Under the pieces are notes generated by a model. The model was given only the letters and a program-made list of their open reading frames with translations. It did not search any database and was not told the origin of the DNA. This document shows, one piece after another, positions 911-45,852 of a DNA stretch of 64,000 nucleotides. This DNA is from Octopus vulgaris (taxonomy: Eukaryota), in contig OX597815.1 of assembly GCA_951406725.2 (NCBI GenBank), positions 96,162,001 through 96,226,000 of the forward strand. The letters are read 5' to 3'. Numbering within the stretch: position 1 is the stretch's first letter; each line of letters starts with the position of its first letter. Position numbers and translations under genes: made by a program.

Positions 911-2313
911 AAATGAAAGAGAAAATAAAAAAAGAATATTATTGACGAGTTAGATCAATACTAAACACAGAGCTCAATGCTAAAAACAAGATAATGGGTA
1001 TCAACACTTTAGCTGTCCCAGTTATAAGTTACAGCTACAATATCCTTAACTGGACACGAAACGAACTGTCCAAAATAGATAGGAAAACAAGAAAATTACT
1101 GACAGGATCTAGGATGCATCACCCAAAATCTGACATAGAAAGACTATATATACAACGTATAGAAGGTGGTAGAGGCCTTATACAGCTGGAAAACTACTAT
1201 AAAATAACCACCATAAGACTGCAAAAATATCTACTTTAGAAGGAAGGAAAACTGATCCAGATAGCAGCAAAACACGAGCAAAACAAAAAACTGTTCTCAG
1301 TATTTAAGGAAGCTGACAAATACAAACAAGAAATCATACCACCTAATAAACATGAAGAAGAAGAAGAAGATGATGAAGAAACAACAAAAGCTATAAAACA
1401 AATGAAATCCAAACTAAAAATAGAACAGCAACGAACCATGATAAAACGATGGCAGGAAAAGCCCCTTCATGGTAAATACTGCACTAAACTAAACGCAAAA
1501 GAAATAGACAAAGAAAAATCCCAGCAATTGTTGAGAAGCTCAGGACTATAAGCAGAAACAGAGGGATTTTTAATTGCAGCACAAGACCAAAGCCTCCCCA
1601 CCAGAAACTACCAAAATTATGTAATGAAAAGAAATATTACAAGTAACTGCAGAATATGTGGAGATGGACAAGAAACAATAAATCATATTATCTCTAGCTG
1701 CCCAGTCCTGCCTAAGAAGGAATATATTCACAGACATGACAGAGTTGGAACCTACATACATTGGAAGCTATGCCAACATTATGGAATAGCAACAGAAAAA
1801 AGATGGTATAGACACACACCAGAAAAGGTCACAGAAAACGAGAAAGAAACCATACTCTGGGATATGCCGATACACACAGATAGAGAAATTAAGGCCAACA
1901 GACCAGATATAGTTGTCAGAGATCATGAAGAAAAAAATGCTTTCTAATTGATGTATCAATACCGGCAGATGACAACGTGTCTCTAAAAGAAATGGAGAAA
2001 CTCTCAAAATACAAAGACCTGGAAATAGAGGTAACTAGAATGTGGAATCTGAAAACAGAAACAATTCCTATCATAGTAGGTGCATTAGGCATGATAAAAA
2101 AATATTCAGATAAATACATAACAAAAACACCAGGACTTACAAACACATATAACATACAGAAAATTGCACTACTAGGCACTGCACACATCCTACGCAGAAC
2201 AGTTTCCATACAATAACCATCAGAGCATCACAACAAATCACAGCACATACCCAAGGCACACAGAGCTGCGCTCGGTAGTGAAGTGAAAGCACGCTATAAA
2301 AATAAAACTACTG
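1..2313 (+). mobile_element. Degenerate Dong/R4-clade RLE non-LTR retrotransposon (family A), 3' part; runs off the window start
   Basis: Fragmented frames give GIFQGDTLSPL, MDDLKL, GGRGL, zinc knuckle CRICGDGQETINHIISSC, RHD, NRPDIV and KLSKYKDL. Several stops and frameshifts. The 3'UTR ends in CTACTG followed by (AAT)n. Confidence 0.92.
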
Positions 2314-2365
2314 AATAATAATAATAATAATAATATTAACAATAATAATAATAAAAATAATAATG

Positions 2366-2460
<95 letters not shown>
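2314..2460. repeat. (AAT)n tract: tail of family A and 5' flank of family B copy
   Basis: Direct reading of the sequence. Confidence 0.97.
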
Positions 2461-2461
<1 letters not shown>

Positions 2462-5400
2462 CCATATATTTCCCCACAGATAAGTCTAGCACTGTACAAG
2501 CATACTTAAACTGGAGACAGAAACACCCTGAAGTAAGACCCTACATAGACAGTAACAAGCTTGCCAATGTTAGAAGAAACATTATAAAAAAGAAATTACT
2601 GACTGAAGTAGAGATTGATCAGGTTAGACAAGCAATATCGGATAAAATGAACGAAGCTGCAGCTAGAGAAGATAATACAGAGGAAATGATTATAGACCAG
2701 CCCAGGGCGGATAAAAACGAAGAGAGGATTGAAAGAGTTAGTATAAGTGATAGGCAAAGTGAAATACGCCCTGAACCAATCATAAACACTAAGACAGATG
2801 AGCATCAAATAGATAAAGAAAGTCACACAAATATTGACCCAACAGAACTACATGAGCTAAAAAATCAAATCATGATTGAATGGCTGAAAATTAAAGAAAC
2901 CAGCATGGATGAGCGTGATACACTTCCTAAAATCCGCAACTCTAACCAAAACATGAAAATAATTGGTAAAATCCGGCTTGCACTTAAGGATATAATTTCA
3001 GTTAATGATGTTGATATCACAAACCTCAACCACCTATACTATGCATCCGCGAAAATCTCAACGATCCTATGTGGTGTAAAGATTAGAAAACGGCAACAGT
3101 CCCACAAAAAGCCTTCTTGGCAAGAGCGTCTGCAACAACAAATTAAAATATTTAGATCTGACATTGAATATTTGAAAAACCTTAAGGCTCACAAGATTAC
3201 CAAACCTACAAAAACCCAAAAATTACTGAAAAAATACAATATGAAAACTATACTTGATATTGATGCCACCATAGAAACCATCAAACAAAAGGTATCTGCC
3301 AAAGCTGCCCGCATAGCGAGGTATGAAAAGCGTGCTAGATTTTTCAAGGACAACAACATGTTCAAAAATAACACCAAGAATTTTTACAGGAAGATAGGAA
3401 AAACAGCGTTTACTGCAGGGTCTGTACCATCAAAAGAAGAAGTGCAGAGATTTTGGAATAAAATCTGGGCAGAAGAAAAAACACACAACGAAAAGGCCCC
3501 CTGGATTGACAGAATATCTACAGAACTGGACCCCTTAGAAGAGCAAAAGTGGGAGGGTGTCAAGGTAGAAGATATAAGATCTGCTCTCAGGAGGTCAAGC
3601 AAATGGAAGTCTCCAGGAAAGGATAAAATTCCTAACTTCTGGCTGAATGCCTTCCCAGAGAGCCATGAACTGCTAACAGAACTGTACAATGATGTTTTGC
3701 AACACCCTAGTAGGATGCCTCCTTGGCTAGTTAATGGGTTAACATTCCTGCTTCCAAAAAGTGAAGAAACAAATGAACCAAAAAACTATAGACCCATAAC
3801 TTGCTTAACAACTATGTACAAAACACTAACATCTGTCCTGACGGAATATACCTATAGTTTTTTAACAGACAGCAGCATATTCCCTAATGAACAGAAAGGA
3901 TGTAAACGTGGATCCTACGGCTGTAAAGACCAACTACTCATCAATAAGATGATCTTAGAAGATTGTCACAAACGACACAAAAACTTATCAATAGCCTGGA
4001 TAGACTATAAAAAGGCTTTTGATAGCCTACCACATAGCTGGATTAGGAAATGCCTTGAAATGTATAAGATAGCACCAACTCTGCGAAACTTCTTGACTGT
4101 AAGTATGAGATCATGGAGAACCACACTAACTCTGAACAGTGACAGTGAATTCCTAAATGCTGGTGATGTAAAAATTTCGTGTGGCATTTTCCAGGGTGAC
4201 TCACTGTCACCACTCCTCTTTTGTTTATCCTTAATACCTCTCTCAAAGCTGCTCAATGACGCGCAGTACGGGTATAAAATGTTTGATAAAAATATAAATC
4301 ATCTCGTTTACATGGATGATTTAAAGCTTTTTGCAAAAAATGATCAACAACTCAAGGGCTTACTAGCGATAGTCAAACAATTCAGTGACGACATCAGAAT
4401 GCAATTCGGCCTCGATAAATGTGCAAAGGCTACCTTTATCAAAGGAAAAATGACAGAAACATCTAACGTTAACCTTGACCAACAGAATGTCATAAAAGAA
4501 CTAGACCCAGCGGAGAGCTACAAGTACCTAGGGATAATTGAAGGGAACGGAATAAGGCATTCAGAGATGAAGGAAAGGATCAGGAGAGAATGCTATCGAA
4601 GAGTGAGAGCAATACTCAAGACAGAGCTGAATGCAAGAAACAGGATGGAAGCAATCAATGCATTAGCTATACCAGTCGTGACTTACAGTTTCAATATTGT
4701 TAACTGGTCAATTACTGAAATATGTCAGCTCGACAGAAAAATAAGGAAACTGTTGACAATGCATAGAATGCACCACCCTAAGGCAGATACAGAACGACTC
4801 TATCTGCCAAGAAAAGAGGGAGGCCGTGGTCTTTTGCAACTGGCAATAACAATGAAGATTGCTACAATTGGCCTAGACACCTACCTGAAAAACTCTGAGG
4901 ACTGGATGCTAAAACTTGTCTCAAAACATGAAAACAAGAAAGCATCATACTCAGTCACAAAACAGGCAAAGGAATATCTAAGTGAATTCCGAATACAACC
5001 AATTTCGGAGATAGATATACAAGAAACAAGCACAGAAAAAGCTAGGCGCATGAAAACCCGTGCCAAAACTGCGGCCTTAGATATTCTGAATAATAAATGG
5101 CAAGAAAAACCTCTCTATGGCAAATACCCAAAGAGAGCGAATAATGCAGATATCGACAAAGCCCTGACCCATCAATGGCTAATGGCCTCTGGCTTAAAAT
5201 CTGAAACAGAGGGGTTTATCATAGCAGCTCAAGATCAATGCCTACCAACAAGAAACTACCAGGCCAACATATTAAAGATCAGAAGCAGTCCAACGTGTCG
5301 TGTATGCAAGCAACAAAATGAAACCATTGACCATGTGGTCTCCAAGTGCAGTCTTCTAGCGCCTACAGAGTATCTCAACAGGCACGATAGAGCTGCACAA

Positions 5401-6085
5401 TATATTCACTGGGTAATCTGTAAAAACCTGGATTTGCCCCATGAAAAAAACTGGTGGGAACACAAACCACCCCCAGTGCTTGAAAATGACCACATCTCAC
5501 TCCTCTGGAACTTCACCATTCAAACTGACAGGAAGATAGATGCAAATAGGCCAGACATCATATTGAAAAACTTCAAACAAAGAACATGCCTCCTCATTGA
5601 TATGACTGTCCCAATCGATATAAACGTATCTGTCAAGACCTACCAAAAACTGAGCAAATATAAAGATCTTGAAATAGAAATCAGCAAAATGTGGAAGCTG
5701 AAGACTAAAACAATACCTGTTGTCATAGGTGCCCTGGGAATGATAGCAAAAGGGGCTGATAGCTACCTAACTCAGATACCAGGAAACCCAAAAATGGCAG
5801 AAGTTCAAAAGATAGTGCTCATGGGAACTGCTCATATCCTACGCAAAATACTCTCTATGTAATCTCAAGGTTTAAAACAAACATAATTTTCGGTTTAAAA
5901 AAAAAAAAAAAAAAAAAAACTTTTTTTTTTCTTTTTAGACATTCATTAGTACAACATCCCCACCCCCCAAATATATGGCACACTAGGCATAACAACAACA
6001 TGAACTTCCAACCCTGTTGTCTCTTGAGGTCTCTGGGTGAGACTTGGAGCCAACTTGTACAAATATAAAGCAAAAGTCAAACATA

Positions 6086-24557: not shown

Positions 24558-24570
<13 letters not shown>

Positions 24571-25482
24571 TAAAAATGAGGGTTTTTGCACCAGGTTGCT
24601 ATACCACATACCGAAAGTATTAGAAATAGCAGCCAGACGACTGTTATTTCTTTTACTACAAAAATAAGTCCCACAGACAACAGAATTTATAACTCACTAT
24701 GGCAAAAAACGAAGAAAAACAACGAAATCAAACAGTGTCTGTTTAGAAATAACAGTCGACTGGCTGCCATTTCTAATACTTTCGGTATGTGTTCTAGCAA
24801 CCTGTTGCAAAGACCCTCATTATTATAATTATATATAATTTTACCGAATATGGTCCTTTTTCCATAACGAAAACTACTTGGTGAAATTTGTTGATTTTAA
24901 TAAATTAATTATATTTCCCCCTTTGTCTGTATTGATTATTTTATTCCCCTACGACGGAACTACGAGTTCATTTTCGGCATAATTTTTTTGACTCACGTGG
25001 TAGAAATTCTGGAGGGAGATACGAATTCACTTGTCTATATAAATGTGGATATACTGGTCAGTTTCTATATGTCCGATGTCGCCTGTTCGGAATATGGTGG
25101 TAAGATTTCCTAGCATTTTCAAATTTATTTATCGGAATATTATGTTGATGAAGGAAATGAATCTGTGATTTTAATCCAGAAACGTATGCGTCCATAATAG
25201 ACCGGACACTGTTTGATTTCGTTGTTTTTCTTCGTTTTTTTTGCCATAGTGAGTTACAAATACTGTTGTCTGTGGGACATATTTTTGTAGTAAAAGAAAT
25301 AACAGTCGTCTGGCTGCTATTTCTAATACTTTCGGTATGTGGTCTAGCAACCTGGTGCAAAGACCCTCATTGTTCTAATTATATATAATTTTACCGAATA
25401 TGGTCCTTTTCCATACAGAAAAAACTACTTGGTGAAATTTGTTGATTTTATTGAATTAATTATATTTCACCCTTTATCTGTA
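24558..25482 (+). mobile_element. Retrozyme-like / non-autonomous Penelope-type element: 550-bp monomer + partial tandem repeat + 5' inverted segment
   Basis: Direct repeat 24745-24931 = 25295-25482 (period 550). 24558-24739 is the reverse complement of 25205-25387. HHR at 25138-25199. (TA)n on both sides. Confidence 0.75.
25138..25199 (+). ncRNA. Type I hammerhead ribozyme (C3>U variant)
   Basis: tattatg-TTGATGA-a-gga..tcc-a-GAAACgtatgcGTC-cataata. 7-bp stem I, GUC triplet. Confidence 0.75.
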
Positions 25483-25494
25483 TATATATATATG

Positions 25495-25985: not shown

Positions 25986-26584
25986 GAATGCGGTAGTGCC
26001 TTGATAGCAGTTGGATATTAAATGGTCAAGTGCTCTGACCGTGATGTGTTTTGGATGGTAGTAGTGATTTAATTCTTGAGACATCTCGTTTGAATGTATT
26101 GTTTATAAAATTTGCGCAAGTGTTATTCAAAGCAGCAATAGTGGTAAAGTTAGGAAAGAGGTGGCGAAGAGGAAGAAGACGAAGAAGAAGAAGGAGAAAG
26201 AGAAGTGAGAATAAGAAGGAAATGCAGCTTGTATGATAGTAGTAGGATGTTAATTGGTCAAGTGACATAAAAGTGGTTCGTTATTGATTCTTGTAGTGAT
26301 TGGGACTGTTTTTTAATGAATTCTTGGGAATCTCTTGAGTGTATCGTTTTAAAAATATATTGCTCTTGACATTGCATAGGCCAAACAAAAAACAGTCTAC
26401 GTAAAAGGATGGCTCTGCACACATCCCAGATCAAATTTCCCCAAAACAGAAAAATTGCATTCAGCCAATACATCGATATTTGCGCCAATAAGAAAATTCC
26501 AAGCTTCAGAATTTACCCCTCTACCAATTCAGGGACGATACAACCTGCAGCCAACGATTCTTTTTATTACAAAATACAGACACC

Positions 26585-29083: not shown

Positions 29084-29174
<91 letters not shown>
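29077..29174. repeat. (ATT)n, 3' tail of family B copy 2
   Basis: Direct reading of the sequence. Confidence 0.95.
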
Positions 29175-32320
<3,146 letters not shown>

Positions 32321-44200: not shown

Positions 44201-44707
44201 AGGACATTTCGTTCATCTAAGAGATATAGTAAGCTATTAGGGAGTATTAGAAAAATACATAGTAAACTTAAACAATAACTTGGAGAGAAAATTTATACGA
44301 AATTATTTACACAAAATATTGAGGGGCAGAGACATTTTAAGAAGCGTGTATAATTCAAAGATGACTTTAGTTGATACGTGATATGGTAAATGAAATTTAT
44401 TATGTAGAAAATTGAAACTGAGATCGCGAGGTGTTGAGTGTAATGTTCATAAATATGCAGCCCGATTAAATTTTGATTTTTCCCATCTGTAATCTTCTGG
44501 TACGCTGAATCATACATGTTACATACATATATATGTAAATAAAAAGGGCGAGCAACAGGTTGCTTAGCCACATACCGAGAATTTAGAAATAACAGTCAAA
44601 GACAGCTTCTTTCTATTTTCTACAAATATAACTCCACATGTAACATATACATGTAACTCACATATGTATAACAGGATGAAAAATAACGAAAACAAAGTCT
44701 TAGGTTA

Positions 44708-44767
44708 GTTACGGGCGCGTCTCTGGGTCAGAATTATGAACAAATTCATTCCCTTCTTCAGCGTAAC
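44708..44767 (-). ncRNA. Type I hammerhead, core-mutated
   Basis: Minus strand: gttacg-CTGAAGA-a-ggg..ccc-a-GAGACgcGCC-cgtaac. GAAA>GAGA and GTC>GCC; the 6-bp stem I is intact. Confidence 0.65.
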
Positions 44768-45107
44768 ATTCCTTTAGATAGATGTACAAATGTTAACTTA
44801 CATACCTCTTGCTTTCCGACCTCACGCCATCAGAGATAGCATGAGACAATTAACACAAGTTAAATCCATATAGACGAATGAATTCGTATTTTCCCTCCCA
44901 AATTTTACCATGTGCGTCACAAAAATAGTTCCTCTGGAATAGCGCTATGGATTGTCATAAGGGAGTGAAAAATTCCTTTATTAATAATATAAGGGTAAAT
45001 AATTATTAATTTCAAAATCAATAATCATTTCCGGGTAGATTTCGGCATGGAAATATAACCATTATTGGTAGGAAACTTTAAAAAAAAGTTATATATATAT
45101 ATATATA

Positions 45108-45272
45108 TACAATAATATGTTACATTACACGATAGTCAAGATAAAACTCTGAGTTTCAGATGCCGAAGTGGAAATCCACAACACCATCTCTTCGGTTATC
45201 TGGCTAGATAACCGAAGATATGGTGTTGTGGACTTTTATCTTGCCTATCGAGTAATGTAACATATTATTGTA
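45108..45272. repeat. Fold-back element with a degenerate hammerhead in one arm, inserted in (TA)n
   Basis: Arms 45108-45146/45234-45272 and 45175-45201/45206-45232. Minus strand 45140-45200: gataa-CCGAAGA-gatg..catc-t-GAAActcagagTT-ttatc. Confidence 0.8.
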
Positions 45273-45343
45273 TGGATACAATTTCCTCTATTTACATAAT
45301 ATTGAGGTATCTTTCTTTCTTTTGTTATCTTACCGTTTTACCA

Positions 45344-45412
<69 letters not shown>

Positions 45413-45852
45413 AAGGGCAAGCAACAGGTTGTTATTATTAATAATGGAATTCTTTACTCCCTTATGTCAATACATACACGTATATGTATATGTGCGTGTG
45501 TGTAAATCTACCTATCTATCTGTTTCTAGCTACATACGTGCACGAGCGCACACATACAAACACACACCCGACACACACTCACACACATGAGAAATATTAT
45601 TTCGCTCAGTTATAGCGATACTATTAACCTGGTGTTATAATTTAGAACAAGGCGCCAGTTGAGTACAGGGCAGTAATATGACAAATAAAATGACAAAGTA
45701 AAAAAAACTTATGGTATAAACTAATTTGCATACTGCTGTTTCCATTATTAGTTGTAGTGTACTCACATTTTATGCTTGTATATCTTCCAATAGATTCATG
45801 GCTGCTTGAGATATGAAGTGCAATTTTACTTGGGAACGAAATTACGTTTATG

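Follow-up and report, generated by a model that had tools for sequence, protein, structure and literature searches.

The stretch of DNA analysed here (the window; 64,000 nt of Octopus vulgaris contig OX597815.1, i.e. G000:C2:96162001-96226000 in a genome of 2.8 Gb and 227 contigs) carries two copies, A and B, of a repeat unit of some 550 bases, lying on opposite strands. Each is accompanied by a shorter inverted arm (180 bp at copy A, 44 bp at copy B) that the preliminary description of the window had not recorded. Positions within the unit are given as u-coordinates, with u1 the first base past the predicted hammerhead cut (window 25193); E1 and E2 designate its two 3' end sites. The features are as follows:

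24559–24739, - strand: inverted arm of copy A, ~180 bp, with its 3' end at site E1 in (TA)n
24745–25483, + strand: forward arm of copy A, 1.34 units (738 bp), with its 3' end at site E2, followed by (TA)n
25133–25204, + strand: hammerhead fold of copy A; stem I with an internal loop, core TTGATGA, stem II of 3+4 bp, an unpaired A before GAAA and a self-complementary stem III, ACGTATGCGT; predicted cut between 25192 and 25193
25295–25483, + strand: conserved structured region with both 3' end sites (E1 near 25387; E2 near 25483–25490 equivalent), a putative protein-binding and priming region
44527–45090, - strand: main body of copy B, one full turn of the unit (~555 bp), with a TA-rich tract at the 3' (site E1) end
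44708–44767, - strand: hammerhead fold of copy B, type I and Penelope-type, core CTGAAGA, stem II ggg/ccc
between 44714 and 44713, - strand: predicted cut of copy B
45101–45346, no strand assigned: later insertion into the internal (TA)n of copy B, made up of two head-to-head 3' ends of an autonomous Penelope-like element with a 717-aa ORF; of its two arms, that on the - strand includes the hammerhead-like motif of the element and stops at the first site, and that on the + strand stops ~65–75 nt further, at the second
45347–45404, no strand assigned: expanded (TA)n at the internal E1 site of copy B
45405–45431, - strand: 5' end of copy B, i.e. its terminal redundancy (unit positions ~156–195)
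45433–45476, + strand: short inverted arm of the same unit (positions ~282–323), adjoining the 5' end of copy B

The two copies had been described as sharing one block order opened at different points, and this stands: the reverse complement of 44543–45110 is collinear with a doubled 24745–25294 straight through the junction of copy A. Aligned to doubled copy A, copy B gives a single local alignment with a score of 385.5 (100 shuffles: 95.2 ± 10.5, maximum 129), and blastn reports 66% over 582 columns; the terminal redundancy of copy B, previously put at 20 bp, measures ~27–35 bp. Its 888-bp span (44543–45431) includes the 245-bp foreign fragment at 45101–45346, set within expanded (TA)n, and in uninterrupted relatives, e.g. 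L039, the sequence is continuous across the site of this insertion. The stem sequences are likewise as claimed, stem I reading attatg/cataat in copy A (25139–25144/25193–25198) and gttacg/cgtaac in copy B (44767–44762/44713–44708), with stem II changing from gga/tcc in copy A to ggg/ccc in copy B. The core of copy B is damaged (GAGA replaces GAAA, CC replaces UC), and its ribozyme is probably dead.

Elsewhere in the window, an intact 1191-aa ORF (2287–5862, + strand; RVT_1, zf-RVT) belongs to a non-LTR retrotransposon, flanked by (AAT)n tracts, that we take to be R4/Dong-like; a broken copy, 94% identical to it, occupies 29095–31956 on the - strand. A decayed Penelope-like GIY-YIG fragment lies ~850 bp downstream of copy A (26328–26570, + strand), and positions 1–910 hold a 459-bp tandem duplication of 95% identity.

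The unit family and its hammerhead fold

Genome searches with copies A and B returned 2527 and 1899 first-look candidates, respectively, with 40 scored per search, and exact sequence patterns of the unit occur at 256, 780 and 295 places, against 0 for each reversed control; we infer a genomic copy number of a few thousand. Clustering of 121 rows yields eight subfamilies of at least three members, 9–26% apart, with copies A and B falling into separate subfamilies (23% apart); a further sister subfamily, Y, has a period of 556–561 bp. Units are 545–561 nt long, with a GC content of 30–34%, and are non-coding, the longest sense-strand ORF in five of them having 50 codons. In being non-coding, poor in GC and a few hundred nucleotides long they match retrozymes; no RT or GIY-YIG ORF of the kind that marks an autonomous Penelope-like element (PLE) lies within the unit. 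A pattern for a more distant relative gave 0 matches, and a looser one brought up nothing beyond a sister subfamily of this unit.

At two loci (L019:1016, and L347 on the - strand, near 1843 from its far end) the motif close to E1 is shared and the sequence on both sides is different; these relatives are possibly further retrozyme families. A 175–190 bp piece of the unit (u107/120–294) recurs, both flanks included, no fewer than 11 times close to the ends of contigs (L286–L296; end of C1, start of C2), and so has been captured by a larger repeat. Contigs from four runs presumed to be RNA match copy A piecewise, with 85–99% likeness, as contigs that cannot show expression, ends, strand or circles.

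Judged by its sequence, the hammerhead in the unit is of type I and its fold is conserved, each unit having the core and three covarying stems. Across 67 rows, 93.7% of 1339 cells are paired and 11 of 20 pairs show two-sided changes, a result reached in 0/500 shuffles (slid controls: 27–43%), where the shuffles ignore relatedness and compensatory changes are tallied by subfamily tables and allele-frequency classes, not as tree events. For 61 subfamily-balanced rows—a set that partly overlaps the first and was partly recruited by a pattern fixing stem II—the corresponding values are 96.2% and 9 of 16 pairs. More informative than these shuffle tests, six pairs, including core pair 3–8, swap Watson–Crick type among subfamilies, with splits that differ from one pair to another; pair 3–8 itself is CG in 25, UA in 21 and UG in 20 of the 67 rows, so that the C3-G8/U3-A8 core swap of Penelope ribozymes is present, and at the base of stem I subfamily Y shows one more switch, from G-C to A-U. 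Pairing is kept by 19/32 variants found in at least four copies versus 5/33 private variants (p 2e-4), and a common second allele is seen in 1/9 core columns versus 260/544 columns overall. The length of stem III ranges from 6 to 10 nt, yet 181/219 occurrences (overlapping loci included) are self-complementary, a combination that fits a putative dimeric double hammerhead. The earlier proposal that the RNA fold was under selection in the source elements, for which covariation in a larger sample had been named as the check, is thus supported on three counts: the covariation itself (61–67 copies, 94–96% paired, 0/500 shuffles), the pair switches between subfamilies and the self-complementarity of stem III.

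One detail reads differently. The A..A noted at the base of stem II is present in both copies, but does not represent a conserved pair (AA 90, CA 35, TA 6 of 135 rows): the base after A9 may be A, C, U or absent, whereas the A before GAAA is near-invariant (134/135 rows), and in 14/14 aligned copies of the sister subfamily the 5' base is missing and the 3' A kept. Such an unpaired A is foreign to the canonical core and might reduce activity.

Rfam models gave no hammerhead match in the window at gathering score, and at four loci searched at E up to 5 they returned microsatellite-driven miRNA noise only; folded in isolation, the motif gains nothing over shuffles (z -1.2 and -0.6). When entire units are folded as circles, the sense z is -3.5 to -8.8 in 4/4 cases and the antisense z -0.3 to -4.6 (20 shuffles each); as antisense folding is favourable too in 3/4 units, these z-scores alone cannot fix the strand. 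In the consensus fold, stem I brings both ends of the RNA together; the test of the non-hammerhead helices is partly circular, since these were derived from the same alignment.

Insertion ends and continuity across the cut

Among 402 distinct arms of at least 45 nt, from 338 loci and partly recruited by queries near E1, 169 end at E1 (u186–203), 124 at E2 (u280–303) and 109 elsewhere. The same preference is seen in a hammerhead-anchored sample, where 71/91 arms end at E1 or E2 (windows that make up 8.5% of the unit, the chance value), and in subfamily Y, where 53/55 do so. E1 lies ~195 nt and E2 ~290–297 nt past the cut, leaving ~100 nt between them, and a TA repeat lies no more than 20 nt from the 3' end in 121/169 arms ending at E1, 104/124 ending at E2 and 38/109 ending elsewhere.

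Arms that adjoin head-to-head mostly use a different site each. Of 112 such pairs, 63 terminate at E1/E2 sites on both sides, the remaining 49 doing so on one side at most; the 63, a count that still includes at least one duplicated locus, comprise 59 E1+E2, 4 E1+E1 and 0 E2+E2 combinations, with 31 mixed pairs expected (p 5.5e-14). Subfamily Y contributes 16 head-to-head pairs, 13 or 11 of them mixed according to which of two rulers is used, and none alike. The unit therefore displays two alternative 3' ends, an inverted, 5'-truncated arm with a tail at one end, and AT-rich/(TA)n targets, all marks of mobilisation by PLEs; a one-end tail, an inverted arm, a (TA)n bias and non-autonomous members are the traits of PLEs as presented in PMC8557442 and PMC3846280.

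These ends alter the reading of the 'variable permutation' from which a circular or multimeric template had been deduced. That the template was longer than one unit holds, junction and cut both being crossed; the 3' ends, however, are fixed and only the 5' ends vary, such that the apparent permutation amounts to a pair of fixed 3' ends combined with 5' truncation of varying extent (the Penelope 'tail' signature), and two differently opened copies are alone no proof of a circle. The same fixed 3' ends rule out a circle, of DNA or RNA, opened at random. The internal E1 site (L039, L041, L046, L032) is a short TA tract that grows into (TA)n and draws later insertions, the elements in this way seeding their own targets.

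Forty listed arms exceed 540 nt, the longest reaching 1498 nt (2.7 units), and at L337 three hammerheads follow each other ~555 nt apart; such tandem hammerheads are rare, most copies being shorter than one unit. Once eight flank-sharing duplicates have been collapsed, the 5' ends of arms fall at ~0.5–0.8 per 100 nt. In the samples from the subfamilies of A and B, 49/60 arms extending to u20 continue past the cut; stops at that place run at 0.88 versus 0.53 per 100 nt (p 0.075), with other windows higher. In subfamily Y, 24/34 arms pass and 10 stop (1.5 versus ~0.4 per 100 nt; p 0.0007, or 0.003 by the second ruler, for a stop window fixed only after the Y data had been viewed), and on the second lap 3/4 arms stop at the cut. 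Since most copies cross the predicted cut, the template was continuous there in most events, and a hard stop, as a linear cleaved monomer alone would impose, is ruled out. Rare alleles are common to the laps (25/5050) and to the arms (75/12139) of one insertion 8–10 times more often than in the baseline (85/135225), unrelated neighbours having been kept in the comparison. Only 4/30 lap pairs and 14/95 arm pairs are mutual nearest matches, and the laps of copy A are 6.4% apart with no rare allele in common. A circle, a tandem transcript and a cut monomer on which the polymerase jumps between ends could each have served as template.

Penelope-like elements in the genome

GIY-YIG matches in the genome number 6136 candidates (150 scored), and autonomous PLEs with an intact RT and GIY-YIG ORF are among them: a 781-aa family combines RVT_1 (just below the cut-off) and GIY-YIG in one intact ORF, and has a 40-nt tail and, upstream, partial copies that vary. 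At L145:981-5772 (G000:C5:1039500-1046500) this Penelope-like family, which is young, shows an ORF of 479 aa (no clear Pfam match) followed by the one of 781 aa (RT + GIY-YIG), with a U3-A8 hammerhead-like motif, the 40-nt tail and many near-identical copies; a separate upstream ORF is unusual among PLEs. A second family, very abundant and young, is the source of the 3' end piece nested in copy B; it has a 717-aa ORF (22039 candidates; L399–L404), a tail of ~65–75 nt and, here too, an extra base before GAAA in its hammerhead-like motif. The 717-aa protein has no match in Pfam or the PDB; its RT resembles that of the 781-aa family (E 9e-7), and by its look—a cysteine cluster before the endonuclease—it presumably belongs to the Neptune clade. 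Head-to-head insertions of this element, like those of the unit, pair a first with a second end, in 28/29 cases, where first ends falling 10 nt outside the preset threshold were read as the first site.

A terminus homologous to the unit was found neither among 50 GIY-YIG loci (30 + 20, the best candidates) nor among six full-length 717-aa copies, and matches to the unit inside GIY-YIG loci resemble separate insertions in TA tracts. Across loci L001–L338 and the window, tblastn with three PLE proteins found no coding sequence that enters an arm unbroken in the same sense.

The most probable template, and relation to known systems

Our preferred reading, to which we assign a probability of about 0.8, is that the unit is a non-coding hammerhead repeat, likely copied by Penelope proteins into (TA)n tracts and probably from a self-cleaved, re-joined circular RNA; it would thus act as a Penelope pseudo-LTR would if it ran independently. 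The cycle would begin with transcription of a copy longer than one unit. Two hammerheads may then pair via their self-complementary stem III to excise a unit-length RNA, a step for which fold and complementarity are seen and cleavage is presumed. The ends, held by stem I, would be ligated into a circle as in known retrozymes, a step that we judge slightly favoured. A Penelope protein would cut both strands of a (TA)n target and start RT at E1 and E2, usually one per strand; here the end pattern is observed, and the protein and mechanism are the putative part. The synthesis that followed would have stopped at ~0.5–0.8 per 100 nt, mostly crossing the cut and sometimes continuing beyond one turn, as recorded in the DNA, and by going beyond one turn would remake a two-ribozyme copy. 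Counted against this reading are the lack of a homologous partner terminus among the families sampled, the null results from Rfam and from folding of the isolated motif, the unpaired A, controls that ignore relatedness, a cut-stop excess that is clear in one subfamily only, weak matching of laps, and the uncut substrate of PMC11167929.

Tentatively, one might go further and suppose that the copies record a full Penelope cycle on a tiny circular RNA, a single protein dimer using E1 on one strand and E2 on the other of the same RNA, with the polymerase rolling through the ribozyme-ligated junction and a few nicked templates leaving the stop at the cut site. If so, the genome would provide direct evidence that retrozyme circles are mobilised by Penelope proteins in the absence of sequence homology, and the unit would offer a 550-nt substrate for the circular-template model in vitro.

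Penelope-driven insertion of the same kind might instead have drawn on an uncut, linear read-through transcript of tandem copies, with no circle and with the ribozyme kept for a different role (forming the 5' end, or late cleavage assisted by protein). Passage through the cut site is just as expected from such a template, tandem copies of up to 2.7 units exist (L337), and in PMC11167929 RNA that is unprocessed makes up the main substrate, with no reads ending at the cut in the results set out there. Copies with two complete hammerheads are, however, rare (few arms exceed 800 nt), a linear master would presumably lose sequence upstream of its start in each round unless read from outside, and the fold of the entire unit is closed and branched (circular z -3.5 to -8.8, sense, 4/4 units); we doubt this account, whilst granting it real weight. 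Less probable again is a self-cleaved but unligated linear monomer, on which the RT, having reached the 5' end, would have to jump to the 3' end beside it or onto another monomer ~70–80% of the time. Stem I does hold both ends together in the consensus fold, the single copies L090, L219, L438 and L450 start at or adjoining the cut, and in the sister subfamily 10/34 arms stop no more than 24 nt from it on the first pass and 3/4 on the second. Yet these stops lie mostly 1–17 nt short of the cut, where pausing at stem I could explain them, their excess is weak in other subfamilies, and hammerhead alignments are without gaps or extra bases at the cut.

A derivation of the copies, by 5' truncation, from the terminal repeats of an autonomous but unseen Penelope-like element would suit an end anatomy identical to that of autonomous elements, and the partner searches scored best candidates only; going upstream, though, copies either re-enter the unit or end, and the tblastn comparison (L001–L338 and window) was without coding sequence running unbroken into an arm, making this very improbable. 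To a DNA-level repeat (satellite, extrachromosomal circle or Helitron-type) with a relic hammerhead we give next to no credence: a few copies have been duplicated along with their flanks (L286–L296, L050/L051), but the 3' ends fixed by strand, the 5' truncation, the coupling of E1 with E2, RNA covariation and the spread of copies across many contigs speak against it, polarity and covariation being sufficient to refute it.

With EN+ PLEs (known by their pseudo-LTR, tail and inverted 5' arm, as portrayed in PMC8557442, PMC3846280 and PMC11167929), the unit shares two 3' end sites, a one-end tail, head-to-head arms, (TA)n targets, 5' truncation and a hammerhead upstream of the start sites; it differs in having no ORF and in a tail of ~95–100 nt, compared with 30–40 nt in those papers and 40 nt and ~65–75 nt in the two autonomous families of the octopus genome. 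According to PMC11167929, the PLE protein cuts both target strands, and the tail is delimited by two internal positions where RT starts; in vitro, uncut RNA was the chief substrate, and mutation of the ribozyme left insertion normal. Non-autonomous elements of Chlamys such as MRC1 (as given in PMC8557442) are similar in being PLE dependants with pLTRs and head-to-tail copies; their 3' end resembles that of an autonomous partner, whereas no such partner was met among the octopus families sampled.

The hammerhead itself can be set beside the minimal hammerheads of PLEs as outlined by Cervera & de la Pena 2014 (PMC4209133), where their traits are described and a dimeric double hammerhead and a circular template are proposed. 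In common are the long helix II, the palindromic helix III, the U3-A8/C3-G8 swap and, in most subfamilies of the unit (it is absent in one), the extra base after A9; particular to the unit are the near-invariant unpaired A between C11.1 and G12 and a full 6-bp stem I with a 3-bp extension.

Also among the closest systems are the animal non-LTR retrozymes, of which, by sequence-level criteria, the unit family is a new member (as non-autonomous Penelope-like elements). Circles of animal retrozymes are reported in PMC7229834, which names PLEs as likely helpers, and bioRxiv 10.64898/2026.07.22.740005 draws on data from frogs (co-occurrence and pseudo-LTR homology) to propose that animal retrozymes depend on, or originate from, PLEs; 1/9 dimers was cleaved in that preprint, which calls the mechanism of retrozyme mobilisation still open. 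As portrayed in these two sources, they share with the octopus unit a non-coding unit of a few hundred nucleotides, low GC, one type I hammerhead, head-to-tail continuity, co-occurrence with PLEs and a dimer-type stem III. The octopus unit is longer than the 170–400 nt of Cervera & de la Pena 2020 (PMC7229834) and within the 51–972 bp of Li, Clavereau & Pollet 2026; its copies, unlike theirs, are mostly dispersed, shorter than a unit and 5'-truncated, not arrays (longest 2.7 units), and its link to PLEs is an insertion footprint, not sequence homology.

Amongst titles and the opening lines of abstracts we found no publication that describes this family or counts a one-site-per-strand rule; Repbase-type libraries may already list it. 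The kind of element and the dependence of animal retrozymes on PLEs are thus known already, the latter as put forward in the 2026 preprint, and what is new is the footprint evidence that the octopus family adds: fixed twin start sites, two strands that almost always differ in the site they use, and read-through of the cut with a partial stop. The unit is, in addition, a small natural substrate with which to ask whether Penelope copies a circle, and what purpose its two start sites serve.
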